A DNA stretch of 64,000 bases, taken from an uncultured delta proteobacterium. Its GTDB lineage: Bacteria; Desulfobacterota; Desulfomonilia; Desulfomonilales; Desulfomonilaceae. Location: the NCBI GenBank assembly GCA_963789265.1, contig CAWBKB010000001.1, positions 1,024,001 through 1,088,000 of the forward strand, given 5' to 3'. A program made the translations under genes and the position numbers. The first letter of the stretch is position 1. Each line of letters starts with the position of its first letter. Shown here piece by piece: positions 35,522 to 55,739 of this stretch. The notes beneath the pieces are model-generated. The model ran no database searches and was not told where the DNA came from. It saw only the letters and a program-made list of their open reading frames with translations.

Positions 35522-38198
<2,677 letters not shown>

Positions 38199-39330: not shown

Positions 39331-39557
39331 TCTTTTGCCGCTCGTAACCGGGGGATCACTTGACGCGGCTCGAAATGTCTTGAATTCGATGCCGCTTCTG
39401 ACCTAATTATTTATACGAATTGGGGGGCGGACAATCGCGCTGTAAATTCCGGTTAGTTGTTTTGTCCCGCAACGGATGCAGTCTGTTCGGCATTTCCGTG
39501 TCAGCCAGCTCTGTCCAACTTTGGATCACCTCCAGGATAGCGGGTTCGAAGGAAATC

Positions 39558-40631
39558 ATGAAACGAAACAATTCAGACGATAATGGTGGAGGCACTGAGA
39601 ATTCTGCGAAGCGTCTTGAAATAGATGACTTGGCCACTCAGACCATTGATCTCGCTGACCTGCTCACAAAACATGTGACCTCTTCGGGCAGCTTCGATAT
39701 TCGAGGCGGAATCTGGGCCACGACCTTTGGCAAACTGCTCCAGGCTTTGCCGATTCCCGCTGTACTTGTCGACCGAGCCTTTGAAGTGGCGGCTGCGAAT
39801 GAGGCGTGGAAAAAGCTCGGTCCGGGATATACGGAAGCGCTGTGCGGTCGTTTTTCAGAACTTTTTGGGACTCCGTCCGCTGCAAGAAAAATCCAGTCCG
39901 CAATAGAAGAGGTCTTCCGTACTAGAAGAGCCAAGTTTGTCGAAGCACAGATCAGGGTGAGAGAAACCCCGGCAATATGGGCGCGAATCACTTTCCGCGC
40001 AATTAGGATAGTGCAAGAGAGGTTCTTGCTCGCTTTGGTCGAAGACTTGACCGCGGAAATGAAACAACTTGCGCTAAGCAAGAAACATCGGGAACAACTT
40101 GAAGCCACTCAACAGCAGCTCGAACAAAAGGTGGCTGAACGAACCGCGCAACTGACCCTAACAAATGAAAGCCTGCGGAAGGAAATTGAAGAGCGACTGA
40201 AAGCTGAAGAGGCGCTGAAAACCGTGGTGGCCAAGATCGAGGAGCAACTCAGGGAAGTGCGTGAAGACCTGGTGCTCAAGATGCGGATCTCCCTGAAGCC
40301 TTTGATCGATCAACTTAAAGCCCAGGAATCTTCTGCCAACTGTCAGCTTCTTATTGAGGCCATGGACTATCACCTCGAGAATACCTTTTCATCCCTCGGG
40401 ACCCGGATGTCCTCAAAGCTTGCGACGTTGTCGCCACGTGAAATTCAGGTATGTAACCTCATCGCGTCGGGACTTTCCTCTAAGCAAATAGCAGATGTTG
40501 TCGGGGTAACAGCGGAAGCGATCAGCCACCAGAGGCTCAATATCAGGAAAAAACTCGGCCTTGACTTGTCTAGTGCGAGCATGGCCACGTGGCTTCGTCA
40601 ATTCTACGGTTTTCAGGTCGATGAACCTTGA
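39558..40631 (+). CDS. PAS-like domain + coiled coil + LuxR-type HTH transcriptional regulator
   Basis: LSPREIQVCNLIASGLSSKQIA....HQRLNIRKKLGL; LEQKVAERTAQL signalling helix; AAGGA RBS before ATG 39558. Confidence 0.88.
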   Translation: MKRNNSDDNGGGTENSAKRLEIDDLATQTIDLADLLTKHVTSSGSFDIRGGIWATTFGKLLQALPIPAVLVDRAFEVAAANEAWKKLGPGYTEALCGRFSELFGTPSAARKIQSAIEEVFRTRRAKFVEAQIRVRETPAIWARITFRAIRIVQERFLLALVEDLTAEMKQLALSKKHREQLEATQQQLEQKVAERTAQLTLTNESLRKEIEERLKAEEALKTVVAKIEEQLREVREDLVLKMRISLKPLIDQLKAQESSANCQLLIEAMDYHLENTFSSLGTRMSSKLATLSPREIQVCNLIASGLSSKQIADVVGVTAEAISHQRLNIRKKLGLDLSSASMATWLRQFYGFQVDEP

Positions 40632-41175: not shown

Positions 41176-43260
41176 ATGGACATGGATCCAAAGGACCCAC
41201 GCGGCCCCCATTTTTACCGGAAGCGGAATCCCGCGGCCCATCTTTCCGCTGATGAGGCGGGACCTACGGAAACTATTGACCTGAATGCGCTGTTTTCTTT
41301 TGAGGCAAGCGAATCCGGCTCCTTCGATCTCTCAAAGGTGAGCCATTCGACCTTTGCGAAACTACTTCAGGCGTTGTCAGTGCCTACACTGCTGATAGCA
41401 CGCTCTCATGCCATAAAATTTGCAAATTCGGCTTTTGTGAAGACCACTCGTGACAGTTTCGATTTGACAGGCGCAACATTCTCGGCGCTCTTTCCGAATC
41501 CGAGAGAGGCGCGCCAGGCTCAGCTACTTCTGGAGAAAGTGTTCACAGAAAGAAAGGCTGAGGTCCGGGAAAAAGTCCTGAAGATTCGGAAGATCAAACT
41601 GTGGGCCAGGATTCACCTACGGACTATACGGTTGGGCGCCGAACAGCTCGCGTTGGTCCAGATCGAGAACCTGACGGCTCAAAAACAACTTCTGAGCGTG
41701 CAAAAGTACAAGAAATTGGTGAAAATATTTCCCATTGGTATTGCAGAATTTGCTTTGCCGCGTCAACTCGACCTTTCCCTGTCCCCCGATAAACTACTTT
41801 CCAACGTTCTCGATGCCGGGGTTGTCGACGGCAACGAAAAGTTCGCAAACATCTATCAGCGCCGGAGCATTTCAGACTTGGCAGGCACAAGATTGGGGAC
41901 ACTCCTGCCGTGCAAGGGGCGAGGGGAAATCCTCTACAAACAGTGGGCACATGCGGGTTTTCCGATTCGCTCCTTCGAGACCCGGGAGGCGGACGCTTCA
42001 GGAAAGGCCCATTTCTTTGAAAACACCCTTATCGGCAATGTAAGCGATCAGCGCTTGCTGGGATTCTGGTGGCTCAAGCTCGACGTGACCGAAAAGAAAA
42101 AGGCCGAAGAAGAATTCGCAAAATCTCAAAGGATTGAATCCCTTGGAATACTTGCCGGAGGCATAGCGCACGATTTCAACAACCTACTCACTGCGATGTT
42201 GGGGAACATTTCCCTGGCTCAGACTTACCTAACCCCGGACCAGAAAGCCTACGATTGGCTCGAAGCGGCGGCCGCAGCCTCTAAACGAGCGCAAGCGCTG
42301 ACCCACCAACTCCTGACTTTCTCCAAAGGGGGAGCACCGATTAAAAAGACTGCCTCTGTCGCAGAGTTGCTTAAGGATACGGTGGAGTTTGCCCTGCGAG
42401 GGTCAAATGTCCACCATGAGCTTTCCATTGCTGATAGCTTGTTCCCTGTGGAAATGGACCAGGGACAGATCAGCCAAGTGGTCTACAACCTAGTTATCAA
42501 CGCTCTTCAGGCAATGCCCGACGGAGGCACAATCATGGTTCAGGCCGAAAACTGTGTTGTTCGTCCGGAATACTTGCTTCCCCTGAGTCCTGGCAATTAC
42601 GTGAGAATCCGGATTCAGGATGCAGGGGTGGGTATACCGCCGGGTATCTTGCAGAAGATTTTCGATCCGTATTTCAGTACCAAGGAAGGCGGAAGCGGCC
42701 TCGGACTTTCAACGGCGTACTCAATAATCAAGAAACACGACGGGCTGATCACCGTAAATTCTGAGGTGGGGCTGGGAAGCACGTTCTACATCTATCTGCC
42801 GGCTTCGCAGAGATTTTCCGCCGCAATGGACTCTCAAGCTACTGAAGAAGAAACTCCCTGCTATAAAGGCAAGATCCTTGTCATGGACGATGAAGAATGT
42901 ATACGAGACTTGATGAGGGATTTGCTCGCACACATCGGGTATGCAGTTTGTTTGGTAAAGGACGGGTACGAGGCGGTGGCTGAATATCAGCGGGCAAAGG
43001 ATGCCGGAAAGCCCTTTGACGCAGTAATCATGGATCTAACCGTACCAGGTGGGATGGGCGGCCGGGAGGCGATCCAGCGCCTGCTGAAGATTGATCCGGA
43101 TGTTCTGGCCATTGTATCCAGCGGTTATTCCGACGATCCGGTATTGGCGGATTTCAAAAGCTATGGCTTTGCAGGTGTGCTATCCAAGCCATATACATCG
43201 GACGCTGTGATGGACCTGCTGGAATCGGTCATGAAAAGATCCTCGGATCCGACCCTCTAG
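41176..43260 (+). CDS. Cytoplasmic hybrid histidine kinase (PAS-like x2, HisKA, HATPase, REC)
   Basis: [61 protein letters not shown]. Confidence 0.93.
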   Translation: MDMDPKDPRGPHFYRKRNPAAHLSADEAGPTETIDLNALFSFEASESGSFDLSKVSHSTFAKLLQALSVPTLLIARSHAIKFANSAFVKTTRDSFDLTGATFSALFPNPREARQAQLLLEKVFTERKAEVREKVLKIRKIKLWARIHLRTIRLGAEQLALVQIENLTAQKQLLSVQKYKKLVKIFPIGIAEFALPRQLDLSLSPDKLLSNVLDAGVVDGNEKFANIYQRRSISDLAGTRLGTLLPCKGRGEILYKQWAHAGFPIRSFETREADASGKAHFFENTLIGNVSDQRLLGFWWLKLDVTEKKKAEEEFAKSQRIESLGILAGGIAHDFNNLLTAMLGNISLAQTYLTPDQKAYDWLEAAAAASKRAQALTHQLLTFSKGGAPIKKTASVAELLKDTVEFALRGSNVHHELSIADSLFPVEMDQGQISQVVYNLVINALQAMPDGGTIMVQAENCVVRPEYLLPLSPGNYVRIRIQDAGVGIPPGILQKIFDPYFSTKEGGSGLGLSTAYSIIKKHDGLITVNSEVGLGSTFYIYLPASQRFSAAMDSQATEEETPCYKGKILVMDDEECIRDLMRDLLAHIGYAVCLVKDGYEAVAEYQRAKDAGKPFDAVIMDLTVPGGMGGREAIQRLLKIDPDVLAIVSSGYSDDPVLADFKSYGFAGVLSKPYTSDAVMDLLESVMKRSSDPTL

Positions 43261-43372
43261 TATTGCCGTCGGAAGGATATGGCCCAGCAGCCTTGCCAGG
43301 CAAAGATCGGGCCACACTTCGTGGCCTGGATCTAATCTTCTGCGGAAACTCTATTCAGGCAGCGCATGCCTC

Positions 43373-44690
43373 TTGAAGTCTGTACGAAGCTCGGAGGATG
43401 GCTTGCCCCCAGCCGACAGGAATGCTCTCGCAAAGAAGCGTCGGATTAGTGCCATTAGCCTGGTTAAAGACGTCCGAGCGGGGTACTCTGATGAGCAGCT
43501 TCGAGTGAAATACCGGGTTACACGCGACGGTCTGCAATACTTGCTGACGAGATTGGTCGATTCCGGTTTGATCACGCACTTGGAACTATACAGTCGGCAG
43601 TCTCTCTCTGAGAGTGATCTCATGAGAGCTTTCTCGGAGGATGCCGCCCCCGTGTTAAAGTGCATACGTTGCGGCAATGTCCTGCCGGAGGGCGTTGGTT
43701 CATGCCCGCACTGTGACACTTTAGCAGTAGAATTGCAGGAATCGCTCGTCATCGAGCCCGAGGTATCGCTTGGACCAAGCAATCCCCTGCCTGATTTGAC
43801 TCGCACTCCGGGAGATCAATTCATACCAACCGACCCCTTCGGGTCCCCCGGAAACGCCCTGGAGATACTGGAGGTCAAGCCGAACATCCGAGACGTGGCT
43901 CAACAGGGCGACGGTTTAAAGGGGCAGGCTTTGCTGAAAGCGGCAAGTCGAGGGATCTATGAACAGGTTGAGGCCCTAATGAATTCCGGGGTGAATGCAG
44001 ATTCACGCAGCAAGTACGGAAATACTCCGTTAATACGGGCCGCGTTCAAAGGCCATCCCGAGGTGGCGAAGCTGCTCCTGGACAGGGGCGCGGATGTGAA
44101 TGCAGAGAATGTCCAAGGGAATACCGCCCTAATTTTCGCCGTCAGTGCCGGTCATGCGGAAGTGGTGGAGCTTCTCCTGAATCATGGGGCAAATGCCGGT
44201 ACGAAGGCTCCGGACGGCAACACCGCGCTGAACGATTGCATGTCGGGGGGAAAATGCTTTCATTGTCGAATCGCTTATAGACCATGGCGCAGATGTCAAT
44301 GAGGCGAACAACAACGGCGATACTCCGTTAATGATTGCTTCCGACAAAGGCCAAACGAAGATCGTAGAGATTGTCATTAAGGCTGGAGCTCAAATAGACG
44401 CCGGCAACAAGCATTGGAACACCGCGCTCATGAAGGCTGCATTCAGAGGCCATGAGTCCGTAGTAAGGCTGTTGCTGGCAAGTGGCGCCCGCGTAGACTC
44501 CAGAAACACGTACGGCAATACAGCTCTTATGAAAGCCTGTCATCCGGGTCACCTTCAGATTGCCAGGCTGCTTCTGGAAGCTGGGGCCGACGTCAATGCG
44601 AAAGACCTCGACGGCGTAACGCCCATGATGAGGGCTGTTAGAACGCAAAGAAATGACCTCATGCATCTTCTAGCCCAATATGGGGGGTAA
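43373..44690 (+). CDS. Unnamed HTH-like module + CxxC..CxxC zinc ribbon + ankyrin repeats; +1 frameshift at ~44231
   Basis: KRRISAISLVKDVRAGYSDEQL..KY; CIRCG..CPHC; multiple GNTPL/TAL ankyrin repeats continue across ORFs 43373 and 44331 if one A is removed. The start may be TTG 43403 (GGAGG). Confidence 0.8.
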
Positions 44691-44692
44691 GA

Positions 44693-45223
44693 TTGGAAGC
44701 ACGGAAAAAGATTAGAGCTAAAGAGGTTGTGCAAGACCTTCGGTCCGGCACGCCGACCGCTGACCTCCTGAGAAAATATGAACTGTCCCGGAATGGGCTG
44801 GCCATTGTGCTACAAAAGCTTGTTGATGCCAAAGTTTTGAGTCGGTCCGACCTCGAAGATTGGCGATCTCTCAATCATGATGTAACAGTAATTAGGGGCG
44901 TTCGAGAAGACGAGCGAGTAAAGATAGATTTTCCCTTGGTGGTTCAAGACTCCGACTTCCCTTATGCGAAAGGTTTTGTGCGCGACTTATCTGAAAAAGG
45001 ACTCGGGACGTATGGGATTACCGCCCGCGTTGGCGAGACAAAAGGATTGGTGCTACACCTGGAGCGGCCGAACCGGCATGCGCACATAAAATTTCACGCG
45101 CAATGCCGATGGGTGGAACGCTCGGCAGGGGATAGTCCAAGATGCACGGCGGGATTTGAAATAACACATATTGAAGACGCAGCATTAGCCGGGTTACGAA
45201 ACCTCCTTGAAAAAAAGAAATAA
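44693..45223 (+). CDS. Unnamed HTH-like module + PilZ domain
   Basis: KKIRAKEVVQDLRSG...; REDER and DLSEKG c-di-GMP motifs; CRW..AGFEI. Confidence 0.8.
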   Translation: MEARKKIRAKEVVQDLRSGTPTADLLRKYELSRNGLAIVLQKLVDAKVLSRSDLEDWRSLNHDVTVIRGVREDERVKIDFPLVVQDSDFPYAKGFVRDLSEKGLGTYGITARVGETKGLVLHLERPNRHAHIKFHAQCRWVERSAGDSPRCTAGFEITHIEDAALAGLRNLLEKKK

Positions 45224-45244
45224 CCGTCTGCTTATGGGATAACC

Positions 45245-45556
45245 ATGGCGAAGAAGAAGATAAAGGCAAGGGAGTTGCTAACCGATGTTAGAGCCGGATT
45301 GGATGATGAGGCACTGATGCAGAAGTACAGTCTTTCAGCTCGTGGAGTGCTTCAGGCCCTGAACAAGCTCATCGCGCACGGGCTCATGTCTCCGGAAGAG
45401 CTCATCGAACGCAGATCCTTGGCTAAAACCGTTTATATGCCTGTCTTCACGTGCTCTGCCTGTGGGAACACACAGTTCTCGAAAGTGGAGAAGTGTCCGC
45501 GATGTGGTGCCAGGTTGAGAGCTTCCGGCGAGGGGAAGTCGGATTTCAGCTATTAG
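45245..45556 (+). CDS. Unnamed HTH-like module + zinc ribbon
   Basis: KKIKARELLTDVRAGLDDEALMQKYSLS; CSACG..CPRCG. Confidence 0.8.
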   Translation: MAKKKIKARELLTDVRAGLDDEALMQKYSLSARGVLQALNKLIAHGLMSPEELIERRSLAKTVYMPVFTCSACGNTQFSKVEKCPRCGARLRASGEGKSDFSY

Positions 45557-45578
45557 ATTGGAGGTTTCAGGGGGGATA

Positions 45579-46163
45579 ATGGAGAAGAAGCGGCAAATCA
45601 ACGGCAAAAATATCCTCAGTGATCTGAGATCAGGAATGGCTGACCGCCAATTGCAAGTGAAATATAAGCTGTCGAGCAAGAGCCTGGAATCCATTTTGAG
45701 CAAGCTGGTGAAGTGCGGCGCTGTCAGCCATGCCGAACTATACGAAAAGTCCTCATCATACAGAGAGAGCGTTAACCATGTTCAAGCACGAAAGCATCCC
45801 AGGGCGGAGTTGGATGTTTACGTGCCGGTCTATGACATCGCCGACTCGGCCGTGGGGGTGCTAAGGGACATATCGGAGAACGGGTTAAGGCTGGCCGGGA
45901 TCAAGGTCCAGGTTGGACAGGCGAAGACATTTCAGATTCCGGTGGATATGTTCATGGAGGCCCAGCCTCTGTTGATTATCGCTGAGTGCAAGTGGGTTCA
46001 AATAAAGAAGAAGAGCCGACATTACGCAGTGGCGGGATTCGAGCTAATAGATCTTCCGGACGCAGATCGTGAGACTCTCAGAGATTTCATCAACCTGTTG
46101 CTGCTTAAGAGCCCGGAAAACGGCAGCCCTCGGACTGAGAAGGAGCTACCTCCCGCAAGATAA
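45579..46163 (+). CDS. Unnamed HTH-like module + PilZ domain
   Basis: KRQINGKNILSDLRSGMADRQL..KYKLS; RKHPR and DISENG. Confidence 0.82.
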   Translation: MEKKRQINGKNILSDLRSGMADRQLQVKYKLSSKSLESILSKLVKCGAVSHAELYEKSSSYRESVNHVQARKHPRAELDVYVPVYDIADSAVGVLRDISENGLRLAGIKVQVGQAKTFQIPVDMFMEAQPLLIIAECKWVQIKKKSRHYAVAGFELIDLPDADRETLRDFINLLLLKSPENGSPRTEKELPPAR

Positions 46164-46345
46164 ATGGAAGATTCGGCATGGATCGAAAAAGAACAAGGGC
46201 CGATTGACCGATCGGAGGGCAGGTGAGGATGCCGCACTGTGCAAGGTTCTCAAGCCCAACCAATTCACGGTAAAGTGTCAGGTTTGCCCGCACGTGCAAT
46301 CTTTTGTAACGACTTATCGTCATGACTCTTATGAAGGGGGGATCT

Positions 46346-47188
46346 GTGGTCAAAAGAGCAATCAACGCAAAGCAAGCCGTGGCAGACATCCGTTCAGGCA
46401 TGGATGATGCTGCTCTCATGAGCAAGCACCATCTCTCTTCTCAAGGACTTCAAAGTCTCCTTGACAAGCTAGTGAAGGGCGGGTTCATAGATTTGTCCGA
46501 GATAGCAGGCCGTTTGCCGGGTTTCTTGGGGGTGGTCCGTGTATCTGAAGCTGCTCCATCGGCGCACGGAAGCAAAGAGACGAATGGCTCCCAAGCGCTT
46601 CAGACCAAGTCGCCGCCGCTGATCAATGCACAGGAGGCGGCCAGAGACATCAGATGGGGTGTAGCCGATACGGCCCTTATGTCCAAGTATCGCCTTTCAC
46701 CGGCGGGACTCAGCAGCCTTTTCGACAAGCTACTTTCGTCAGGACTGATAACGCAGTCTGACCTTGAACGGAGAGATCTTCTGGCTGACCGTACTGTCAA
46801 CCTGAAAGAAGAAATGCTCAGCTTCGCTGACGCACTGGACCGGCTCGGGCTTAATGTTCCAATTTCAGCACCCGGAGAACGAAGGGCTAAGCCCAAACAA
46901 GTGAAAGTCGGTCATCCTGCTGACAAAAGGACCAAAGCGGCAGAGACTATCTCGACCGGCAAGGGCAACAAAACTTCGCTGGAAGCAAGAGTAAGCCCCG
47001 AGCCGCATGTGACTCCATGGTACGACAGACCTACGATTGTAATGCTCCTATTGATCGGCCTCTTTCCTCTGGGGCTGTACGCTCTTTACCGAAAATCTAC
47101 GTTTTCTATTCGTACTAAATTGTCGATGATGGCAGCTTGGGTCCTGCTGGCTACCATCTGTATAATTTTGGTCATGCGGGGGATATAG
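46346..47188 (+). CDS. Two unnamed HTH-like modules + C-terminal two-TM anchor
   Basis: INAKQAVADIRSGMDD and INAQEAARDIRWGVAD; PWYDRP..LLIGLFPLGLYALY TM motif. GTG start after GGGGG. Confidence 0.8.
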   Translation: MVKRAINAKQAVADIRSGMDDAALMSKHHLSSQGLQSLLDKLVKGGFIDLSEIAGRLPGFLGVVRVSEAAPSAHGSKETNGSQALQTKSPPLINAQEAARDIRWGVADTALMSKYRLSPAGLSSLFDKLLSSGLITQSDLERRDLLADRTVNLKEEMLSFADALDRLGLNVPISAPGERRAKPKQVKVGHPADKRTKAAETISTGKGNKTSLEARVSPEPHVTPWYDRPTIVMLLLIGLFPLGLYALYRKSTFSIRTKLSMMAAWVLLATICIILVMRGI

Positions 47189-47190
47189 GT

Positions 47191-47742
47191 GTGCTGAGAA
47201 TCAAGGCCAGGGATTTGGCGGCTGATATTCGAGCGCGGCTATCGGACTTTGAGCTGATGTCCCAATACGGATTGTCTTTGAACCAACTGGAATATGTCAT
47301 AGGGCAGCTTGTAGAGTCCGGAACGATAAGGAAGGACGAAATCGAAGAAAGGGGCCCTTTCTTTGATGATCCGGCCAACCGATTAAAGACACGGCGGTTT
47401 CCTAGAACGTATCTAAGGGTCCCCCTCGAGATTGAAGATGTGAATAACTCTGCAAACAAGTGCCTCCTTGTTGATCTGTCCGAAGAAGGGTTCCGGGTGC
47501 GCGGAATTACTTCAGGGGTTGTGGGTAAAGAAAAGACCTTTCTGGTTTATCCAAATGGGGTTCGCGGGAGGACGGTTAGACTTAGCGCTACATGCGTGTG
47601 GGCCAAGCTGGATTTAGATGCCGGGTTCTCAGGAGAGGCAGGATTCAAAATAATCAGCATCTCGGATAATGATATGCTTGCACTGAAAAAGGCCGCAAAA
47701 CTTCTAGGTCTCGGAGACCGCAATCTCTCGGCAGCAAGATGA
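47191..47742 (+). CDS. Unnamed HTH-like module + PilZ domain
   Basis: RIKARDLAADIRARLSDFELMSQYGLS; RRFPR and DLSEEG. Confidence 0.8.
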   Translation: MLRIKARDLAADIRARLSDFELMSQYGLSLNQLEYVIGQLVESGTIRKDEIEERGPFFDDPANRLKTRRFPRTYLRVPLEIEDVNNSANKCLLVDLSEEGFRVRGITSGVVGKEKTFLVYPNGVRGRTVRLSATCVWAKLDLDAGFSGEAGFKIISISDNDMLALKKAAKLLGLGDRNLSAAR

Positions 47743-47794
47743 ATCGGCTCATAAAGAGATGTCCTGGACCTGCGTGAGGTTCAACGGGAGCATA

Positions 47795-48478
47795 ATGAAA
47801 TCGAAGATAATTTGGAAGGAGATTGTAAAAGATATTTCCCGCGGAATGAGTGACGCAGAGCTCATGAACAAGCACGAATTGGCAAGAGATCAGCTTAAAT
47901 CCATATTCAAGCAGCTTGCCGGACTGCGCGAAAGAAGAATTCAAATGCTGGTCCGCGATCTCAGATCCGGGATGGCCCCTCTGGAGCTAAAGAGAAAATA
48001 TCATCTCTCGGCCAAAGGCTTCGAAAGTGCCCTCAAGTTGCTTCTTGAGGTAAATGCTATCACTTCGACTGAATTCAAGATCTTCAAATTTGCTGGTGAC
48101 GACAAGTTAGCTCGGCAGGACTCGCGTCGTACACCACGGAGTAACCCCATCCCAGTCGTCACGGTCTACGAAAACGGCAAGCCGGAAACAAGGTATGTAG
48201 TCCGGGATATTTCTGAGAAAGGCATAGGTGTCATTGGGATCAGGGCACAAATCGGCGAGACTAAATCTCTTGCCGTTGTCGGTGATGAATTCGGACAGAT
48301 AGCCCCGTTTGAATTCGAGGTCCAATGCCGCTGGACAAAACATCTGAATCTCAACGGGCAGATATGCTCGGGTTTTAGTGTCACGAATATAAGCGAACAA
48401 GACCTATTTCGGCTCAGGGAATTCATCCAGGGGTTCACGTTCGGGACCGACGAAGCCGGAGACTCCATAGTCAATTAA
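47795..48478 (+). CDS. Two unnamed HTH-like modules + PilZ domain
   Basis: KEIVKDISRGMSDAELMNKHEL and LVRDLRSGMAPLELKRKYHLS; RRTPR and DISEKG. Confidence 0.82.
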   Translation: MKSKIIWKEIVKDISRGMSDAELMNKHELARDQLKSIFKQLAGLRERRIQMLVRDLRSGMAPLELKRKYHLSAKGFESALKLLLEVNAITSTEFKIFKFAGDDKLARQDSRRTPRSNPIPVVTVYENGKPETRYVVRDISEKGIGVIGIRAQIGETKSLAVVGDEFGQIAPFEFEVQCRWTKHLNLNGQICSGFSVTNISEQDLFRLREFIQGFTFGTDEAGDSIVN

Positions 48479-48516: not shown

Positions 48517-50790
48517 TCATCGGTGCCGTTTGAGGCCCAATCTCTCCAGCAGTCCCTTCTTAGTTCTCGTACCCGGGGTGCTCAGTTCGTCCTGCAATTT
48601 TCTTAGCGCTGCATGCAGCTCCTGGGTGTCGGCAAACCTGTCGTCGGGATTCTTTGCCGTCATTTTCTGAAGCAGTTTAAACATCGAGTCCGGGACAGGC
48701 GGTTGAAAATCCTTGAACGGAGGCAACGGCTCATGGACATGCTTCTGGAAAATGACGTAAGCCGACTCGCCATGGAAAGGTGGGGAACCGCTCAGCAGAT
48801 GGTACAGGGTTATCCCCAGCGAATAGATGTCTGAACGTATATCCAAAGTGCGGGAGCCTTTTGCCTGCTCAGGTGAGAAATACAGCGGAGTGCCGCACGA
48901 GATCCCGGTCTGCGTTATGCCGGAATCCTGGGAGTCCAGATAATTTTTGGCCAAACCGAGGTCGGCAAGTCTTGCTTCGCCCTTGTTGGTGAAGAGAATG
49001 TTGGCCGGCTTGATATCTCGATGCAGGATGTTGTTTTCTTCGGCAACACTCAAGGCGCGGGCAATGTCATTTGCTATTTGTAAGACTTTTTCCACAGGGA
49101 ATCGTCCCATCCTGGCCAGCATGGACGCTGCGTTGCCTCCGTCTACGTAAGGCATCACAAGAAAATGATGCCCGTCTTCCAGCCCCACGTTCATCACGCC
49201 GACTATGTTCGGATGTTGTAATTTCGCCGCGGACCTTGCCTCGCGTATGAAGCGTTTGACAAAGATCGGGTCTTTCTCGGCGAGATGCGCGTGAAGGACT
49301 TTGACCGCGACGGGGATATCCAGAGCTATGTGGTGCCCTTTGAACACTCCGCCCATGCCGCCCCCACCTATTTTGTAGAAAAGCCGACATCCTCCAATCG
49401 TTTGACCGATTAACTGCTCGCCGAGGCTATCCGGCCTCGTGTCCGCGAAGGGCACAGTCATGATACGTCCGCAGCTTATACACTTGCCTTTGCGGCCCAA
49501 GTAGCGCGTCGGAACGACGTGAACATGGCCGCATTCGCAGGCGAATCGGATTCTCGGATCGGTCTGCCGCCGAGCCCTTGAAAGCCCCGCTCCCTCCTCA
49601 ACCTTTTCGCTGGAAAAAAGTTCCGTCTCCTTCGTGGGATCGGGCAGCATATCCGTCTGCATCGCACGAATTGCATCCATCTCCAATTCTGTGAACATAC
49701 TGGTGGAAAAAGCCGCAGTCTCCTCGAAAACGGACGGGTCTTGCAGCGCCCGGTCGATGAACGTCTTCAGTTTAGTCTCACCACCGGGGAGAAAGGAAAC
49801 GAACTGCGCTTTCACCCGGTTTGTGTCGTCATTCTCTTCCCTGGGGTCCGATTCGGATACTCTTGCTATGACCCAGACAGGTTCGCCTCCTTCCGGGAGT
49901 GGCAGATGAATCTTCAGTGCAGCGGTGACTCCCGGATCCGGCGTGTCAGGCAAGTCCAGCAGTGCCCAGCCGTAGGAAAGTCGGTCCGATGTCCCTTCTT
50001 TCCAAGTCTTGTTGTCCAGCGAATAGCTGACAGGAGCCACCAAAGGAATTCCAGGAGAGGGGTCCACCGCGAATGAACCGGTTAACTCACGACCTTCCTC
50101 ATTAGTCTCCGCTTCAGGAGATCCCGATGTGACAGGCGCATGGGCCACCTTTCCAGCCTCCACATCCTCTACGAGGACCTCGAAATCGTGCCGCGCTGCG
50201 CCGGCGGACGAAAGGGCATCCAGGATCTGGTCATAGTCTGGAATAAAACGCTTTTGTTCATCGGTCACTTTGCCAAGCAGATCATTGGCCAGAGTAAGGA
50301 GACCTTGCTCAATGCAAACGGTAATAAGATCGGAAATTAAGTCGCCCCTTTCCGCCGGCGTGAGGGTCTCGTCACTCAGAATTTGGTCCCGGAGCCGCAG
50401 GGCTTCATCAACATTTTCCAATCTGATGAGACAAGTGGCCGAATAACGGAAGAGATCGGTACGGAATGCGGGCGACGATGCCAACGCCTTCTTGAATTCT
50501 TCCAGCGCCTCCTCGTACAAGTCCATGCCCATGTAGGCCACGCCCAAATCGAAAGCCAAGCGAGGCGAAAAGTCCTCAGACGGCGGGCGCCGAGACTCAG
50601 TAGTTTCTTCCATCTTTTTGACGAACTGAAGGTGAACTATCTTGGCGCGGGCCTTGCGATTATCGGGCTCAACGGTGAGGACGTTCCGGTAGATGAGAAT
50701 GGCATGATCGTACAACCCTTGAGCCTCATAATGCTCCGCTTCCTGCCACATACGAGCCAAGCCTTCGTTGTCAATGTGGGAACTATTCAT
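48517..50790 (-). CDS. Soluble Hanks-type Ser/Thr kinase with N-terminal TPRs, a degenerate PilZ-like domain and a zinc ribbon
   Basis: IGGGGMGGV, VAVK, HRDIKPAN, DLGLAK, GTPLYFSPE, SDIYSLG; FACECG..GKCISCG; no TM. Confidence 0.9.
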   Translation of the reverse strand: MNSSHIDNEGLARMWQEAEHYEAQGLYDHAILIYRNVLTVEPDNRKARAKIVHLQFVKKMEETTESRRPPSEDFSPRLAFDLGVAYMGMDLYEEALEEFKKALASSPAFRTDLFRYSATCLIRLENVDEALRLRDQILSDETLTPAERGDLISDLITVCIEQGLLTLANDLLGKVTDEQKRFIPDYDQILDALSSAGAARHDFEVLVEDVEAGKVAHAPVTSGSPEAETNEEGRELTGSFAVDPSPGIPLVAPVSYSLDNKTWKEGTSDRLSYGWALLDLPDTPDPGVTAALKIHLPLPEGGEPVWVIARVSESDPREENDDTNRVKAQFVSFLPGGETKLKTFIDRALQDPSVFEETAAFSTSMFTELEMDAIRAMQTDMLPDPTKETELFSSEKVEEGAGLSRARRQTDPRIRFACECGHVHVVPTRYLGRKGKCISCGRIMTVPFADTRPDSLGEQLIGQTIGGCRLFYKIGGGGMGGVFKGHHIALDIPVAVKVLHAHLAEKDPIFVKRFIREARSAAKLQHPNIVGVMNVGLEDGHHFLVMPYVDGGNAASMLARMGRFPVEKVLQIANDIARALSVAEENNILHRDIKPANILFTNKGEARLADLGLAKNYLDSQDSGITQTGISCGTPLYFSPEQAKGSRTLDIRSDIYSLGITLYHLLSGSPPFHGESAYVIFQKHVHEPLPPFKDFQPPVPDSMFKLLQKMTAKNPDDRFADTQELHAALRKLQDELSTPGTRTKKGLLERLGLKRHR

Positions 50791-50912
50791 GCTTGCCCTG
50801 TTTCAGGTTGCTGCAGCTCCTCGACCGACCACTCGTCAATAAGTTGTGGACACCACAAGAATGTCCCTCAACAAGAAGGAATCATAACAAATTAATGACA
50901 CATTGTCAGCGG

Positions 50913-52607
50913 TCATTTGGGAATGAAACCAGGCGGCAATTCTTCCGGTTGAGCGTGTCGCGGCTCCGGATGGCGTTCCTGCCGGACCGATGGACTCTGC
51001 GCATCAAACGTCTCGGGGGCTAGGCGATCCTGCGCCGCCTTTTTGCTTTTGAAGCTCAAGCCGTACTCACGTGCCTTTTCTATGTAAGAGCCCGAGGCCA
51101 GCCTAATTTCTCCAATAATATTCACACGAATGGCTGCGGCGCCCTGCACGGGGCACTTGTTTTCGCATAAACCGCAACCGCTGCACTTGTTTTCAATGAC
51201 CACAGGAGCCGCATTCTTCAGTCCTGTGGCGGGCTGAAAGGATATGGCGTTGTATGGACAGACTTCATCGCAGACAAGACACTTCCTGTCCTGTTCCCAA
51301 ACCAGGCAGTTTTGTCGGACGATCCAAGCTGTTCCTACTTTTGCATGTTTTTTTTCTATAAGGGGAAGGTCACGTATGGCGCCGGTCGGGCATACCTGGC
51401 CGCACAAATTGCAATTCGGCGAGCATGCGGCAAGGCGAGGGACCATGATCGGAGTGAAAAGGCCTTCCAATCCCGCTTTGAGCCATGTCGGCTGAAGCGT
51501 GTTGGTGGCACATGCCTTCATGCATTCACCACAGCGGACACATCGGGTGAGAAAGTCAGGTTCCGGGAGTGAACCTGGAGGTCGTATCAAGTCAGCGTCG
51601 AATAATCCTCTTTCCTTGCCCCGCGGCCTGGGTTGCTTGATGCCCGTGTGCAGCAGACCGGCTGATATTAACCCAGACCCTAGAGCAAGCACCACGCCAC
51701 GCCTCGTGGGATCGGCGGCCGATCCCGAGGACTTCGCGTTGCGAGCGGCTGAAAAAGAGACGGCTGATTCCGGACAGATCTTTACGCATTCGAGACAGAC
51801 TATGCATTCCGAATATGCGGTCTTCCGCGGATCTTCGAATATTGCTCCGGTCGGGCATTTCCTGATGCATCGGCCGCAATGGGAACATGAGTCATTGACT
51901 TTGCGTCGGAGTATGGGCGATCGGGAAAAGAGTCCCATCAAAGCGCCGGCGGGGCACAAATTTCGGCACCAAAAACGCGGCTGGGAATAGGCCAGCGCCA
52001 CGATGCCTACAAAGAGCACTCCAACGAAAACGTTAGTGGCAAATTCTCTTCCGCTAATCTGAATGTAGGCCAACCCGGGAAAGATCCAACGGAAGGGCGC
52101 GGAAGAGGCTAGATCAAGACCGGAATCAGCCAGCAACAGAACGAGTGGATGTACTACCAACCCGTAAAACCGGGTGACGATGGAGAGGGGGGAGCCGATG
52201 AACAGGAGTGAAACCCCTCCCAATGCGGCCCCAAGGACGAAGACAAGGATCAAGTACTTCCACGCGCGGAATCGCGCCGTAGCTTCATAAGTATTCTTTT
52301 TTACTGACGGCTTCCGTCGCGGACCCAGAGGCCCCTGCAGCAGGTCCAACGTGGTCCCCATGGGGCAAATATGCCCGCAAAAGAATCTGCCCGCTAACAT
52401 AGCCGCAGCCAACACAAGGAGGCCGGGCAGAAGACTGATCTCGAAAGACCTCGTAGTTAGAATGGTGCCCAGGCCGATAAGGGGATCGAGTCGGAGGAAA
52501 AAATCCACGGCCAGCCCGTCGTCGTGGTACGGATAGGCGGCCAACAGTAGCAATCCAAGGAAAAGAAAGAGGGTGGCTGTTTGGGTGGCCTTTTGGAAAG
52601 TTATCAC
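50913..52607 (-). CDS. Membrane polyferredoxin (NapH/MauN-like 4Fe-4S binding protein)
   Basis: GRFFCGHICPMG, RFWCRNLCPAG, multiple CxxCxxCxxxCP motifs, IRPPG. Confidence 0.9.
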   Translation of the reverse strand: MITFQKATQTATLFLFLGLLLLAAYPYHDDGLAVDFFLRLDPLIGLGTILTTRSFEISLLPGLLVLAAAMLAGRFFCGHICPMGTTLDLLQGPLGPRRKPSVKKNTYEATARFRAWKYLILVFVLGAALGGVSLLFIGSPLSIVTRFYGLVVHPLVLLLADSGLDLASSAPFRWIFPGLAYIQISGREFATNVFVGVLFVGIVALAYSQPRFWCRNLCPAGALMGLFSRSPILRRKVNDSCSHCGRCIRKCPTGAIFEDPRKTAYSECIVCLECVKICPESAVSFSAARNAKSSGSAADPTRRGVVLALGSGLISAGLLHTGIKQPRPRGKERGLFDADLIRPPGSLPEPDFLTRCVRCGECMKACATNTLQPTWLKAGLEGLFTPIMVPRLAACSPNCNLCGQVCPTGAIRDLPLIEKKHAKVGTAWIVRQNCLVWEQDRKCLVCDEVCPYNAISFQPATGLKNAAPVVIENKCSGCGLCENKCPVQGAAAIRVNIIGEIRLASGSYIEKAREYGLSFKSKKAAQDRLAPETFDAQSPSVRQERHPEPRHAQPEELPPGFIPK

Positions 52608-53542
52608 GATTTGATGTTCTTCACCTTCAGTTTGTCAATATCTATGCGGCCTAGACCGCGTTCGGCGGCGATGCGGATATGGCGCACTTGATCGGGCGCG
52701 AACGATTTCCCCCACCACGTGCCCAGCGCCACCATCTGGGAATCTGCTGCGACCATGTCCGTCGACGCGATCACAAGGTTCATGGGGATTACTTTACCTG
52801 GGCCGCTCGGTCCGCCGGTGCTCAGGATGCGGGTCGCGTCAATTACGACGAGCTGAGGCTTCAATACGGTAACCATGTCTACTATAGCTTCGTGCAGATT
52901 GTACCTGGAATGGAACGCTCTGCGATCCCGAATGAGACCCATCATCCCCTTCATGGAAAGACTCACACCCGAAGCAGCATGAGACTTGCCAACCGGCACA
53001 GCGATCAGAACATCCCCATCCAAAACATCAGAGAAGACTTCCATCGTCTTCACTTTATGAGCCTGAGGGGCCTTGACTTCTCGATACAACCTGCGTGCTT
53101 CCAGAGTGCTGACTGTCGTATTTGGAATGTCCCGGCAGGCCTCGGGTATTTTCGAAAGCCTCAGACATGCCCGCGGTTCGTTCAATACATGATCGACAAC
53201 CGAGATCTTCGAAGCGCCTGCCTCCGCGCACATTCGAGCTACTTCGCCGACGACCGCCGGGTGGGTATTGGACGCCCTTTGCGGCCCGCTGGCAAAGCTC
53301 ATATTGGGCTTGATTACGACCTTGTTACCCGGTTTCACAAAACGCTTTATCCCGCCCAACGCCTCAACCGCAGCCCGGGTGATCGCGGCGGGATCAATGC
53401 CATGTGATATGACCAGGTCCGGGATTTCTTCGGCAAAGGATTCTCTGGGGCCGAGCAGCCCGCCTAATGTCCCGGTGGCGAGCGCGGCGGTGGTGACCAA
53501 ACCGCTTTTCAAGAATTCGCGGCGGTCGAGCCTTTCTGTCAT
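52604..53542 (-). CDS. DUF362 family protein with a Tat signal
   Basis: DRREFLK; ALGGIKRFVKPG.KVVIKPN, NTHP, KSH, DMVAAD. Confidence 0.88.
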   Translation of the reverse strand: MTERLDRREFLKSGLVTTAALATGTLGGLLGPRESFAEEIPDLVISHGIDPAAITRAAVEALGGIKRFVKPGNKVVIKPNMSFASGPQRASNTHPAVVGEVARMCAEAGASKISVVDHVLNEPRACLRLSKIPEACRDIPNTTVSTLEARRLYREVKAPQAHKVKTMEVFSDVLDGDVLIAVPVGKSHAASGVSLSMKGMMGLIRDRRAFHSRYNLHEAIVDMVTVLKPQLVVIDATRILSTGGPSGPGKVIPMNLVIASTDMVAADSQMVALGTWWGKSFAPDQVRHIRIAAERGLGRIDIDKLKVKNIKS

Positions 53543-53602
53543 TACGGTCTCTCCTCTCGCGGAAGGATTCAGAATCCATCAACCATTATTAAAACTGCTG
53601 GT

Positions 53603-53616
53603 TTGACAAAAGTCAA
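53603..53616. promoter_or_regulatory. Perfect TTGAC-N4-GTCAA palindrome (Crp/Fnr-type geometry) overlapping a putative -35 of the DUF362 operon
   Basis: TTGACAAAAGTCAA; minus strand TTGACT-17 bp-TTTAAT. Confidence 0.45.
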
Positions 53617-53822
53617 CAGGCTGATTAAAACGCATCATAAGGCCGAAAGACCCGCGTCCGACCCGCCGGAGGCGAAAAGCTTCATTGAATCGGCCCGTTT
53701 TGCCGAATTCTAGTCGTCCGATGCCAAGTTTCAGTCATGTACTTGTCATGGCCGAGCTAAATCCTGGCTGTCTTCATCGTGATTGGCAGTCTACAACGAG
53801 TAACACATATCCGGGATTGTAA

Positions 53823-54390
53823 ATGGCTCTATCGCGAGTTGTGGAATTAGGCTTCTCTTTCCTGGTGGTATTCGTGCTCATTGTGTTGGTTTCTTTTCTC
53901 ACACTGCGTCCATCGCTCCGGGAGATAAGAACCGAGGCACGCGTCGAATGGGAAGGATTTCTCCAGGCCGTCAACGACCGTAACGACGTGCTGCCCGGAC
54001 TCGTGGAGGCGGTGAGGGGTTATGAACCGGCGTACGCGAAGCCGGCGGAGCGGCTCCTCGAAGCACGTTCAATTTCCGTGCGTTCGAAAGACTCGGGGAC
54101 TATTGTAGCTTCAGTCGATGACATGGAGGTTCAACTGAGGCGGATAGAGAATCTTGCAGAGTCAAAGCCGGGGCTCGCTCAATATCCTCCTTTCGCGGCG
54201 AACTGGAAGAAAGTGGTGAAGATTTCCCGGCGGATAATCTTCCTTCGGCAGAGCTATAACAGCACTGCCGGATTGGTACAATCGTCTACTCACGCCTTTT
54301 CCCCAGAATCTGTTGACCACGGTTTTTGGCTTTGTTCCTCTGACCGAATATCCGCAGAGCGGATCCTTCGGCGAACCGGAGTCGAAGTGA
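53823..54390 (+). CDS. LemA family protein, +1 frameshift at ~54274
   Basis: N-terminal TM, RND.LPGLVEAVRGY; deleting one G restores RQSYNSTAGLYNRLLTPFPQNLLTTVFGF with a stop at 54388. Confidence 0.82.
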
Positions 54391-54468
54391 AGAACTGGGA
54401 GCCGCGTCGTATGCGGGCAGTTTGAAACGAACAGAACCTTATGCTCTGTGCTTCCAGTTCACCAACTT

Positions 54469-55581: not shown

Positions 55582-55724
55582 ACGTATGGCCTCCGCAGCC
55601 CTTCCGAGACGCCTGAGTTTATATCATCTGCCTACACGGTAAATCAACATGCTGCTCGCCCTCGTCTCTGAAGGACAGGTTGTCCGACCCCATAGACCCT
55701 TTCCTAATTCGTGCATAGAGTGTT

Positions 55725-55739
55725 TGGCGCGCGATTGCA
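55725..55739 (+). promoter_or_regulatory. Putative sigma54 (-24/-12) promoter of the PP2C-FHA operon
   Basis: TGGCGCGCGATTGCA fits TGGCACRNNNTTGCW with exact GG/GC spacing. Confidence 0.45.

Follow-up and report, generated by a model that had tools for sequence, protein, structure and literature searches.

The seven co-oriented genes g1-g7, located at positions 43373-48478 of the window (the whole stretch of 64,000 nucleotides analysed), contain nine copies of a module of about 51 residues. The module is best explained as a lineage-restricted family of the helix-turn-helix (HTH) fold that has no name; it comprises four helices, follows a short basic tail, and lies nearly always at the extreme N-terminus of its protein. 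It is tentatively read here, at just under an even chance, as an output domain that binds DNA, with determinants specific to each paralogue on helix 3. It is fused to almost every c-di-GMP sensor protein of its bacterial family, Desulfomonilaceae, and these fusions may represent a new class of regulators under second-messenger control. The array and its flanks are organised as follows:

41176-43260, + strand: upstream flank, hybrid histidine kinase (HisKA, HATPase_c, REC), syntenic in L055, a close relative
43373-44690, + strand: g1, module, CxxC-x10-CxxC zinc ribbon and ankyrin repeats, 438 aa (ORF and relatives)
43445-43597, + strand: module copy 1, g1 (profile search)
43661-43714, + strand: g1 zinc ribbon, CIRC ... 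CPHC (motif)
43904-44690, + strand: g1 ankyrin repeat region (Ank_2, 79.2 and 111.6 bits in the two ORF halves)
44693-45223, + strand: g2, module and PilZ, 176 aa, TTG start (ORF and Pfam)
44711-44863, + strand: module copy 2, g2 (profile search)
44903-45211, + strand: g2 PilZ domain, REDER / DLSEKG (Pfam and motif)
45245-45556, + strand: g3, module and zinc ribbon, 103 aa (ORF and motif)
45260-45412, + strand: module copy 3, g3, the copy used for folding (profile search and AF2)
45452-45505, + strand: g3 CxxC-x10-CxxC ribbon (motif)
45579-46163, + strand: g4, module and PilZ, 194 aa from ATG (ORF, relatives and structure)
45597-45749, + strand: module copy 4, g4 (profile search)
45783-46091, + strand: g4 PilZ domain, RKHPR / DISENG (Pfam, structure matches and motif)
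46322-47188, + strand: g5, two modules, low-complexity linker and C-terminal two-helix hydrophobic hairpin, 288 aa (ORF and hydrophobicity)
46361-46513, + strand: module copy 5, first of g5 (profile search)
46622-46774, + strand: module copy 6, second of g5 (profile search)
47030-47170, + strand: g5 predicted membrane hairpin, two hydrophobic helices (Kyte-Doolittle windows only; topology unsettled)
47191-47742, + strand: g6, module and PilZ, 183 aa from GTG (Pfam and motif)
47200-47352, + strand: module copy 7, g6 (profile search)
47389-47685, + strand: g6 PilZ domain, RRFPR / DLSEEG (Pfam and motif)
47795-48478, + strand: g7, two abutting modules and PilZ, 227 aa from ATG 47795, ORF open from 47759 (ORF and Pfam)
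47807-47926, + strand: module copy 8, first of g7, without helix 4 (profile search)
47933-48085, + strand: module copy 9, second of g7 (profile search)
48122-48430, + strand: g7 PilZ domain, RRTPR / DISEKG (Pfam and motif)
48517-50790, - strand: downstream convergent flank, TPR and Ser/Thr protein kinase, adjoining the array in all three genomes compared

This inventory bears out an initial annotation of the same DNA, which had described nine module copies in seven co-oriented genes, four PilZ genes with intact motifs, two CxxC ribbons (g3 and, with ankyrins, g1), and one gene, g5, with two modules and a two-transmembrane anchor, the predicted hairpin. One copy occurs in each of g1, g2, g3, g4, and g6, and two occur in each of g5 and g7, the first g7 copy being truncated and directly abutting the second. 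The ORF at 43373-44302 and the ankyrin ORF at 44331-44690 are a single gene, g1, split by a one-base assembly indel, because the base at 44230 is missing from an independent short-read contig, the frame without it runs for 438 aa to 44690, and L055 has an intact 433-aa ORF at this position. The Pfam model Zn_Ribbon_1 matches the g1 ribbon with an E value of 0.044, under its cut-off, and the orthologues of g3 are 103-118 aa long. The likelier starts of g4, g6, and g7 are 45579 (ATG), 47191 (GTG), and 47795 (ATG), and with these revised starts the intergenic spacings from g1 to g7 are 2, 21, 22, 158, 2, and 52 bases.

A profile (A1) built from the nine array copies, which are 27-40% identical to the first copy, recovered all of them from the six-frame translated genome with E values of 9.1e-25 to 7.4e-18, far beyond chance. 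When all the ORFs of the 6.06-Mb genome were searched with HMMs in repeated rounds, the result converged at 62 modules in 54 ORFs, without drift into other HTH families, and the module family is real and stable. The array is its largest local cluster (7/54 module genes), and further pairs and one trio occur elsewhere in the genome. Mean module identity is 34.5% inside the array and 32.4% across the genome, and only the g5 pair are mutual best matches among the array copies; judged by this divergence the copies are old, in agreement with the earlier view that no recent amplification had taken place. It was also correctly noted that the module belongs to no named family, as single copies stay below the cut-off of every Pfam and NCBIfam model. 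The first module copy starts at or before residue 15 in 138 of 150 representative proteins. Stand-alone modules (92 aa or less) account for 12 of the 54 ORFs, hydrophobic segments are present in 10, and tandem modules reach 2-7 copies in one protein. The partners of the module comprise PilZ, zinc ribbons, ankyrin, TPR, pentapeptide, PQQ-type beta-propeller, protein kinase, and membrane proteins.

With regard to the fold, AF2 modelling of the g3 copy, based on a 61-copy alignment, gave a pLDDT of 94.0 and placed helices at residues 3-11, 16-23, 27-39, and 45-50, i.e., a three-helix HTH core and a fourth helix. The nearest structural neighbours are DNA-binding HTH domains of the Lrp/AsnC, DosR/NarL, and SorC/DeoR types (Z 5.4-6.3 over 44-49 residues), with an rmsd of 2.0-2.5 Å for the best superpositions and a TM score of 0.72 for the DosR C-terminal domain. 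The classic HTH pattern also fits, with hydrophobic L19/M20, Y23, L25, L30, and L33/F34 and a helix cap at S26, and helix caps and core positions make up most of the residues that every copy shares. Thus, the HTH part of the winged-HTH assignment made initially stands, whereas the wing does not, since a short helix replaces the beta-hairpin position. The top sequence-profile matches in the PDB are an MCM winged helix (E 0.044) and FeoC (E 0.065).

The PilZ domains (PF07238) of g2, g4, g6, and g7 score 32.9, 34.7, 29.4, and 27.3 bits, respectively, against a Pfam cut-off of 22.5; they are canonical, and RxxxR precedes DxSxxG by 22-27 residues in all four. The g4 domain has 26 matches with E values of 1e-3 or less among solved c-di-GMP-bound PilZ structures, the best being 2rde (5e-6). 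The full-length g4 model consists of two confident domains and a low-confidence linker that holds RxxxR (linker pLDDT 61-68, pTM 0.55). In this genome, the module is fused to 11 of the 14 PilZ ORFs, and one further PilZ ORF adjoins a two-module ORF.

A check of taxonomic restriction, which the initial annotation had proposed, found the module in 7 of 301 genomes, six of them in one family; among the genomes searched it is almost confined to Desulfomonilaceae. The host itself is a relative of sulfate-reducers and comes from soil. Most genera of the family have 28 to more than 56 copies, and in low-copy genera (1-4 copies) nearly every module protein is a module-PilZ fusion of about 176-184 aa. 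In one such putatively ancestral context (G327), the module-PilZ gene follows REC-PAS-HD-GYP and REC-GGDEF genes, and in another genome (G343) it is separated by about 1 kb from a REC-PAS-HD-GYP gene; in the proteins of these contexts the module is the sole domain besides the PilZ sensor. The array itself has six genes in L055, at about 85% identity, where g6 is missing, and three in a relative at about 70% identity; its most conserved member is g4. Array members are not mutual nearest paralogues, that of g6 being G000:C1:198764. The initial proposal of a self-contained seven-gene system, only a fraction of the module genes of the genome, was not upheld, and the overall interpretation made at that stage is supported in part, for the HTH-like, unnamed module and the canonical PilZ domains.

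The tentative reading as a DNA-binding output domain draws on the HTH fold and its structural neighbours, on the surface of helix 3, on a basic N-terminal arm, and on the PilZ-linked context of the module in this genome and in the low-copy ones. Among the 14 positions most variable between paralogues, five (27, 28, 31, 32, and 35) lie on the exposed helix-3 face, and within orthogroups the relative entropy of these five is 1.01 vs. 1.86 for the other nine (one-sided Mann-Whitney p 0.006), in a test of five small, shallow groups, hand-chosen from search lists, in which the units are positions. In the g3 group, all five helix-3 face positions are invariant, vs. one of the nine others. The g4 orthogroup contradicts this pattern, as positions 27, 31, and 32 rank with its most variable ones (2.06, 2.14, and 1.84 bits). 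Conservation in that group is highest in the N-terminal KRQING tail, in the loop DLRSGM between helices 1 and 2, and in AISHxELY of helix 4, and not in helix 3. The eight residues ahead of N-terminal copies form a basic arm (mean charge +1.9). The mean net charge of the module, +0.66 vs. +0.72 for the genome's own genuine TetR_N HTH domains (p 0.86), is uninformative on DNA binding. Several observations count against this reading: structural matches are middling, with no Foldseek match at E of 1e-3 or less and no Z of 8 or more; around the array there was no conspicuous promoter, terminator, operator-like repeat, or riboswitch; and many partner domains (ankyrin, TPR, pentapeptide, and PQQ-type beta-propeller) are typical protein-protein scaffolds and not ligand sensors.

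If the module is a DNA-binding output domain, the module-PilZ proteins would be c-di-GMP-responsive regulators. The module itself probably arose in Desulfomonilaceae, joined to the N-terminus of a PilZ receptor for c-di-GMP, and the ancestral gene probably lay beside those of an HD-GYP phosphodiesterase and a diguanylate cyclase. Later, this bacterial family probably multiplied it to dozens per genome and placed it ahead of zinc ribbons, a protein kinase, membrane proteins, and scaffolds of the ankyrin, TPR, pentapeptide, and beta-propeller types. Helix 3 would serve as the recognition helix, with a specificity differing per paralogue, and c-di-GMP bound at the RxxxR linker and PilZ barrel may alter target engagement by the flexibly tethered module. 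The array would then encode four c-di-GMP-responsive DNA-binding proteins (g2, g4, g6, and g7), two HTH-zinc-ribbon proteins (g1 and g3), and a membrane-tethered double-HTH protein (g5), probably co-transcribed in one or two units; a single complex would not be required.

HTHs of the LuxR/GerE type (DosR, NarL) and the N-terminal HTH of Lrp/AsnC share the fold class and size of the module and give the best superpositions, but they have no significant sequence match to it (GerE misses single copies), and they sit in response or feast/famine regulators, whereas the module is N-terminal on PilZ, ankyrin, and propeller proteins. In RodZ and ToxR/CadC, which act in protein binding or membrane-tethered regulation, the chain begins with a cytoplasmic HTH, crosses the membrane in one segment, and ends in an outer domain that varies. 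The 10 module ORFs with hydrophobic segments resemble this layout, although RodZ and ToxR/CadC belong to other HTH families (Xre-type and OmpR-type winged helix) and no homology between them and the module was found. Solved structures of PilZ receptors with an N-terminal domain, namely YcgR, PlzD/VCA0042, MotI, MrkH, and PlzA, are the best fold matches of g4. According to the available text of 10.1101/814665, their N-terminal domain is a PilZ-like beta-barrel (PilZN, PilZNR, and PilZN1-7), in contrast to the all-helical HTH-type module; that portion of the paper does not mention "HTH", "helix-turn-helix", or "DNA-binding". MrkH, a c-di-GMP-dependent DNA binder in the available part of 10.1101/2020.02.11.943704, is a precedent for DNA-binding PilZ proteins. 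The same part lists "cluster 15", 97 PilZ proteins with a predicted C-terminal HTH, which are, like the module-PilZ proteins, small, uncharacterised, two-domain PilZ and HTH-type proteins with a proposed role in gene expression. Compared by description only, the cluster 15 HTH is C-terminal and of a recognised DNA-binding family, whereas the module is N-terminal, has no named family, and also occurs on many non-PilZ proteins.

A protein-docking adaptor is a real possibility, if not a probable one; here the module would bind itself (homo- or heterotypically) or paralogue-specific protein partners and bring c-di-GMP sensors, a kinase, membrane proteins, and scaffolds to their proper sites. The partners, mostly protein-protein scaffolds (zinc ribbons included) or membrane anchors, the N-terminal position, and the clustering of module genes are consistent with this, and the tandem copies fit a multivalent adaptor and a multi-site DNA binder equally, as does the helix-3 pattern for partner-specific protein binding and DNA reading. 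The structural neighbours also include HTH or winged-helix domains that bind protein or RNA and not DNA, namely CdvB (2xvc), CheF (7od9), ESCRT-II (3cuq), and SelB (1wsu), which counts against DNA binding; FeoC, CdvB, CheF, and ESCRT-II are protein-binding winged helices. However, module-module contacts cannot be the original role, given the genomes with only 1-4 module proteins; no variable-surface patch is conserved across paralogues, and the paralogue-specific helix-3 face fits poorly with a homotypic network. Since array content varies between close relatives, the network assembled from the seven genes, an idea of the initial annotation, is also without support.

It is unlikely that the module is a regulatory or structural cap without a target of its own, such as an intramolecular lid on PilZ or other C-terminal domains, or a binder of RNA or small ligands. 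The conserved tail, loop, and helix 4 segments of the g4 group could mark an intramolecular contact surface, and the RNA-binding winged helix of SelB is among the structural neighbours (Z 5.9). On the other hand, the module does not pack onto PilZ in any fixed way in the model of full-length g4, the stand-alone modules have nothing to cap, and a lid would not be expected to suit so many unrelated domains.

That the module is simply DUF433, the domain predicted to act as antitoxin to PIN-type toxins, and the genes degenerate remnants of toxin-antitoxin pairs, is very improbable: although some family members are named "DUF433 family" by JGI, summed scores exceed the cut-off of 23.6 in multi-copy proteins (P0146, 77.4 bits; P0061, 41.7 bits), and hhalign against 25 genuine DUF433 domains gives a probability of 66.7% (E 5.3e-5, 32 columns), single copies stay under the cut-off (best 21.6 bits; window copies E 0.016-0.076), the alignment is limited to DUF433 positions 19-51, no PIN-like gene lies inside or adjoining the array, all 10 genuine DUF433 genes of this genome are at other loci, and 62 of the phylum's 151 genomes carry genuine DUF433, against 7 of 301 for the module. 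In the available parts of PMC2701414 and PMC5499597, DUF433 forms a protein of its own, about 75-110 aa long, with a PIN toxin as its partner. It is widespread and has a Gly/Arg-rich N-terminal block, with invariant G10, G16, and R18, that the module does not have, whereas the module is N-terminally fused, often repeated, and found in one family. Both are small HTH-clan domains, and the likeness to DUF433/COG2442 (PF04255, e.g., VapB45) is remote, covering helices 1-2 and the start of helix 3 with the pattern ...D.L..G.s..El...Y..L; by sequence comparison, the module is at most a remote relative of DUF433.

The array at 43373-48478 (+) comprises seven co-oriented genes (g1 to g7), each carrying at least one copy of the module, a domain of about 51 residues, and nine copies in total. 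The initial annotation had described this unnamed HTH-like module as joined to PilZ and other domains in the seven genes, and the observation is confirmed: a nine-copy profile retrieved all nine when the entire genome (6.06 Mb) was searched in six-frame translation (E 9.1e-25 to 7.4e-18), values that exclude chance as their source. The family is far larger than could be seen from the window. Profile searches iterated over all ORFs in the genome converged on a set of 62 modules, carried by 54 ORFs (seven genes of the window and 47 others), without drifting into other families.

In these 54 ORFs, the module is combined with PilZ (11 ORFs), hydrophobic segments (10), ankyrin repeats (2), or pentapeptide repeats (1); 12 ORFs encode stand-alone proteins no longer than 92 residues. 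A CxxC-x10-CxxC ribbon directly follows the module in 18 ORFs and is itself followed by a PQQ-type beta-propeller, a Ser/Thr kinase, membrane segments, or no further domain; three module-propeller ORFs were found in the genome, two of them with the ribbon. One of the membrane proteins, a thioredoxin, matches the module profile at its N-terminus, followed by a ribbon and one hydrophobic segment. Module and ribbon, spaced 15-25 residues apart, form a recurring fixed composite (18/54 ORFs) that is placed in front of beta-propellers, kinase, membrane segments, and ankyrin repeats. The two putative ribbons of the array are as follows:

43661-43714, + strand, CxxC-x10-CxxC motif in g1
45452-45505, + strand, CxxC-x10-CxxC motif in g3

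Every zinc-ribbon model of Pfam and NCBIfam scored under its cut-off on g1 and g3. The ankyrin repeats of g1 were recovered by Ank_2 with 79.2 and 111.6 bits in the two halves of the gene (cut-off 27.3). These halves, annotated as g1 (43373-44302) and an ankyrin ORF (44331-44690), are a single gene. The contig of an independent public run has one base fewer at position 44230, and without that base the g1 frame continues uninterrupted for 438 codons and ends at 44690; the closest relative found has an unbroken gene of 433 aa at this locus. The alaS gene at 35522-38198 (+) is also read as two overlapping frames (35522-36340 and 36243-38198), with a break near 36243-36340. Because the essential alaS is frameshifted as well, and the g1 base is absent from the independent contig, the assembly is taken to contain erroneous indels, one of which may account for the break in g1 without any biological cause.

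The copies had been described as too diverged for a recent amplification, and this view is upheld by the mean module identity, which is 34.5% within the array vs 32.4% genome-wide; for g4 and g6, closer paralogues lie outside the array (63% and 69%, respectively). The proposal of a single seven-gene assembly was not sustained, since the gene content of the array differs between relatives. At about 85% identity, the order is hybrid histidine kinase-g1-g2-g3-g4-g5-g7-kinase, with g6 missing, and at about 70% only a g4 paralogue, g3, and g4 are present, followed by the same kinase. Thus, array content is fluid between relatives, and the conserved core is the g3-g4 pair next to the Ser/Thr kinase. 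The region 3′ of the array (48517-57607) is rich in Ser/Thr phosphosignalling genes:

48517-50790, - strand, TPR-kinase
50913-52607, - strand, 4Fe-4S protein, behind the TPR-kinase
55959-56855, + strand, PP2C phosphatase
56837-57607, + strand, FHA protein

In each of the three genomes compared, the TPR-kinase and the 4Fe-4S protein are neighbours of the array.

Base composition at the array is unremarkable, and sigma-70 promoters and intrinsic terminators around it were no commoner than in shuffled sequences. No match to a sigma-54 consensus was seen on the + strand upstream of g1. In the two longer intergenic gaps, the only repeat found was a weak inverted one at 43296-43329. Across the whole window, no Rfam family reached its gathering threshold, and hence no c-di-GMP riboswitch was found there.

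The four PilZ genes stood up to scrutiny, with their motifs intact. Against PF07238 (cut-off 22.5 bits), g2, g4, g6, and g7 score 32.9, 34.7, 29.4, and 27.3 bits, and each carries an RxxxR motif followed, at a correct spacing of 22-27 residues, by DxSxxG (REDER/DLSEKG, RKHPR/DISENG, RRFPR/DLSEEG, and RRTPR/DISEKG). The PilZ domain is C-terminal in all four. In the AlphaFold2 model of g4, strands across 83-158 and a helix at 161-176 make up the six-stranded barrel and C-terminal helix of this fold. Foldseek matched g4 to 26 PilZ chains of solved structure (E <= 1e-3), and its PilZ half resembles solved PilZ proteins with c-di-GMP bound. The proteins of g2, g4, g6, and g7 are predicted c-di-GMP receptors. 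The full-length g4 model contains two confident domains, with RxxxR lying in an ill-defined linker (pTM 0.55), and no solved structure was found that joins such a helical domain to PilZ. Among the 14 PilZ ORFs found in the genome, 11 are fused to the module, one is immediately preceded by a two-module ORF, and two are alone. Outside the window, at G000:C1:1573590-1574319 (-), a two-module ORF of 148 aa overlaps a PilZ ORF of 139 aa by about 20 bases, and the two are probably one g7-type gene split by a frameshift.

The module itself was modelled by AlphaFold2 from a genome-wide alignment of 61 copies (pLDDT 94.0, pTM 0.73), with helices at 3-11, 16-23, 27-39, and 45-50 and no strands. Of the winged HTH suggested earlier, the three-helix HTH core (3-11, 16-23, and 27-39) is present in this model and is shared by its structural neighbours, while the beta-hairpin wing is replaced by a predicted loop and the fourth helix (45-50) after helix 3. 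Foldseek gave no match to the module model at E <= 1e-3; its top rows were the C-terminal domains of DosR (TM 0.72) and CheF, AraR, and CdvB. A search independent of Foldseek returned HTH domains of the Lrp/AsnC, DosR/NarL, and SorC/DeoR types (Z 5.4-6.3) and also listed the winged helices of SelB, CdvB, ESCRT-II, and eIF3. The module is thus predicted to adopt a generic HTH fold, with structural scores that are middling by the tool's own scale. Sequence-profile searches of the PDB gave nothing better than the MCM winged helix (E 0.044) and FeoC (E 0.065). Look-alikes of g3 in the ESM Atlas were small HTH-plus-zinc-ribbon proteins, mostly phage-derived, with a best score of 0.82, which is under the level that counts.

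When 1.84 billion representative proteins were scanned, 2,993 clusters matched the module at E <= 1e-3, of which 1,711 reached E <= 1e-10. Among the best 150 of the 2,993, a list skewed towards multi-copy proteins, the copy number is 2-7 throughout, and in 138 the first copy begins at or before residue 15. Pfam annotation of 78 of these 150 gave the same partner domains as in the present genome, plus TPR, DUF2007, and SHOCT. Wherever a database member bears an organism name, it is Desulfomonilaceae, 'Deltaproteobacteria', or Thermodesulfobacteriota. In a sample of the phylum, the module occurs in 7 of 301 genomes, namely the present genome, five of the six other family members, and one weak match elsewhere. 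In a sample of the class, it was found in 46 of 68 further Desulfomonilaceae genomes and in none of 52 genomes of the sister family. Two genera within the family lack it in all searched genomes (0/14 and 0/8), two others have one to four copies, a genome that is 73% complete has 15 matches, and the remaining ones have 28 to at least 56; first-look candidates reached 159 per genome. A divergent subtype (…LLPxYRxG…EEFNxF) occurs once in the present genome (G000:C5:152253-152756) and also at locus L100 (G223:C133:1751-2311), which in the phylum sample is the sole match beyond the family; a wider superfamily may therefore reach slightly past Desulfomonilaceae.

In the low-copy genera, nearly all copies are module-PilZ proteins of about 176-184 residues. 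In the low-copy genome G327, genes for REC-PAS-HD-GYP and REC-GGDEF proteins precede the module-PilZ gene on the same strand, and in G343, another such genome, a REC-PAS-HD-GYP gene lies about 1 kb from it. The simplest history would be that a module-PilZ effector was born within a c-di-GMP turnover operon and that the module was afterwards amplified and shuffled among domains. In G343, G309, and G327 (loci L071, L072, and L073), the module-PilZ gene also adjoins a conserved xanthine-dehydrogenase-like cluster, in which genes for an FAD-binding subunit, a molybdopterin subunit, an amidohydrolase, and a ferredoxin-domain protein follow in identical order.

With regard to function, the module may bind DNA as an output domain, a tentative reading whose chances we place a little short of even. 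It has a classic HTH residue pattern with a basic N-terminal arm in front, and in the ancestral two-domain protein it is the only possible output domain. Among the 14 positions that vary most between paralogues, the relative entropy within five orthogroups is 1.01 for the five exposed positions of helix 3 vs 1.86 for the other nine (one-sided p 0.006). The helix-3 surface is kept within orthogroups and divergent between paralogues in four of the five groups, with the g4 group disagreeing. Such a pattern on the helix that canonically serves for recognition would be expected of a regulator family with differing operators. The idea that helix 3 is unconstrained came from the entropy of the g4 group alone and was not relied on, since that group contains at least one paralogue and the four others show the opposite. 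Net charge was likewise dropped as a case against DNA binding, because genuine TetR HTH domains (TetR_N) of the same genome show the same distribution, which makes it non-discriminating.

It is also possible, if somewhat doubtful, that the module is a protein-docking adaptor. The partner domains are largely protein-protein scaffolds or membrane anchors, the module sits N-terminally and is repeated in many proteins, and several of its structural neighbours are protein binders; partner-specific docking fits the helix-3 pattern equally well. A network resting purely on homotypic contacts is less easily reconciled with the genomes that have only one to four module proteins. A more specific proposal, which we regard as rather unlikely, is that the module acts as an 'address' domain akin to the adaptor domains of eukaryotes, a family-specific docking unit that would wire receptors into a network or onto a lineage-specific structure. 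The helix-3 face would then encode partner specificity, and nearly all c-di-GMP receptors would be joined with scaffolds, a kinase, a thioredoxin, and membrane proteins in a combinatorial protein network. Desulfomonile cells have an unusual 'collar'. Other roles of the module are improbable.

Consistent with the absence of a named family in the initial annotation, no Pfam or NCBIfam model passed its cut-off on single module copies, and the sub-threshold matches all belong to the HTH clan (DUF433, HTH_45, MarR, FeoC, TFIIE_alpha, and MCM_WH). DUF433 (PF04255, curated cut-off 23.6 bits) reaches 21.5-21.6 bits on the best single-copy module proteins and E 0.016-0.076 on the window copies. In multi-copy proteins the summed score passes the cut-off and no single stretch does, which explains why some entries are automatically named 'DUF433 family'. 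In hhalign, the profile of the 61 copies and that of 25 genuine DUF433 domains aligned with a probability of 66.7% (E 5.3e-5) over 32 columns, confined to module positions 1-32 and DUF433 positions 19-51. The N-terminal DUF433 block (Gly/Arg block), with G10, G16, and R18 invariant in the alignment of those 25 members, is missing, and the module instead has a short basic tail in front of it. DUF433 is described, in the available portions of two articles, as a small predicted antitoxin next to PIN toxins (PMC2701414, PMC5499597). Such a gene usually stands alone beside a PIN-type toxin; a profile search found no PIN-like domain in the array or its flanks. Genuine DUF433 occurs in 62 of 151 genomes of the phylum, and the ten in the present genome each lie at a locus other than those of the module genes. 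Membership of DUF433 is accordingly rejected as very improbable: single copies fall under the cut-off, and the Gly/Arg block and PIN context are absent. Since the N-terminal block and the toxin context are both lacking, the module appears from its sequence to be at most a remote DUF433 offshoot.

The module also differs from LuxR/GerE-type HTH domains (PF00196), which gave no profile match on any single-copy module protein; the only GerE match was to a protein with ten stretches (P0146), through its summed score, and the seven genuine GerE domains of the genome lie elsewhere. The module constitutes a new family inside a known fold; both its lineage-specific expansion and its hold on the c-di-GMP receptors of one group of organisms are unusual.

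Literature searches on PilZ with Desulfomonile gave no description of the module, and neither did those on PilZ with HTH and Desulfobacterota, which covered main texts and few subscription journals, so that domain tables accompanying the two PilZ surveys could list the architecture. In the available text of the PilZ survey by Galperin and Chou (10.1101/814665), the N-terminal partners are limited to a beta-barrel, and the terms HTH and DNA-binding do not occur. The accessible part of a preprint on PilZ similarity networks (10.1101/2020.02.11.943704) includes DNA-binding domains among di-domain PilZ proteins and an uncharacterised cluster of 97 PilZ proteins with a C-terminal HTH, an arrangement different from that of the array proteins, in which the module is N-terminal.

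Members of Desulfomonilaceae are anaerobic, dehalogenating, and aromatic-degrading bacteria of soil and sediment. In this family, one unnamed HTH-type domain stands ahead of almost all PilZ receptors, with 28 to more than 56 copies per genome. c-di-GMP signalling is known mainly through a handful of effector types, and to our knowledge the onward signalling route is obscure for most PilZ receptors. If the module binds DNA, the module-PilZ proteins would amount to a new and large class of regulators that respond to c-di-GMP and whose specificity helix can be read; if it acts by docking onto proteins, it would be a rare prokaryotic combinatorial adaptor domain. Under either reading, a proper definition as a family would become available for about 3,000 sequence clusters that presently go under 'hypothetical', 'PilZ domain protein', or, incorrectly, 'DUF433 family'. 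The cultured Desulfomonile tiedjei offers a route to testing module function.

Two genes before the array, at 39420-40631 (+), lies a gene whose product of 403 aa ends in a LuxR/GerE HTH and begins with an unassigned stretch of 330 residues. Immediately upstream of the window and 45 kb ahead of the array (G000:C1:1013894-1021976), three more module genes are found within 8 kb, encoding a module-ribbon-propeller protein, a module protein with five TM segments, and the module-PilZ protein that is the nearest paralogue of g4, with a LuxR-type gene located among them.
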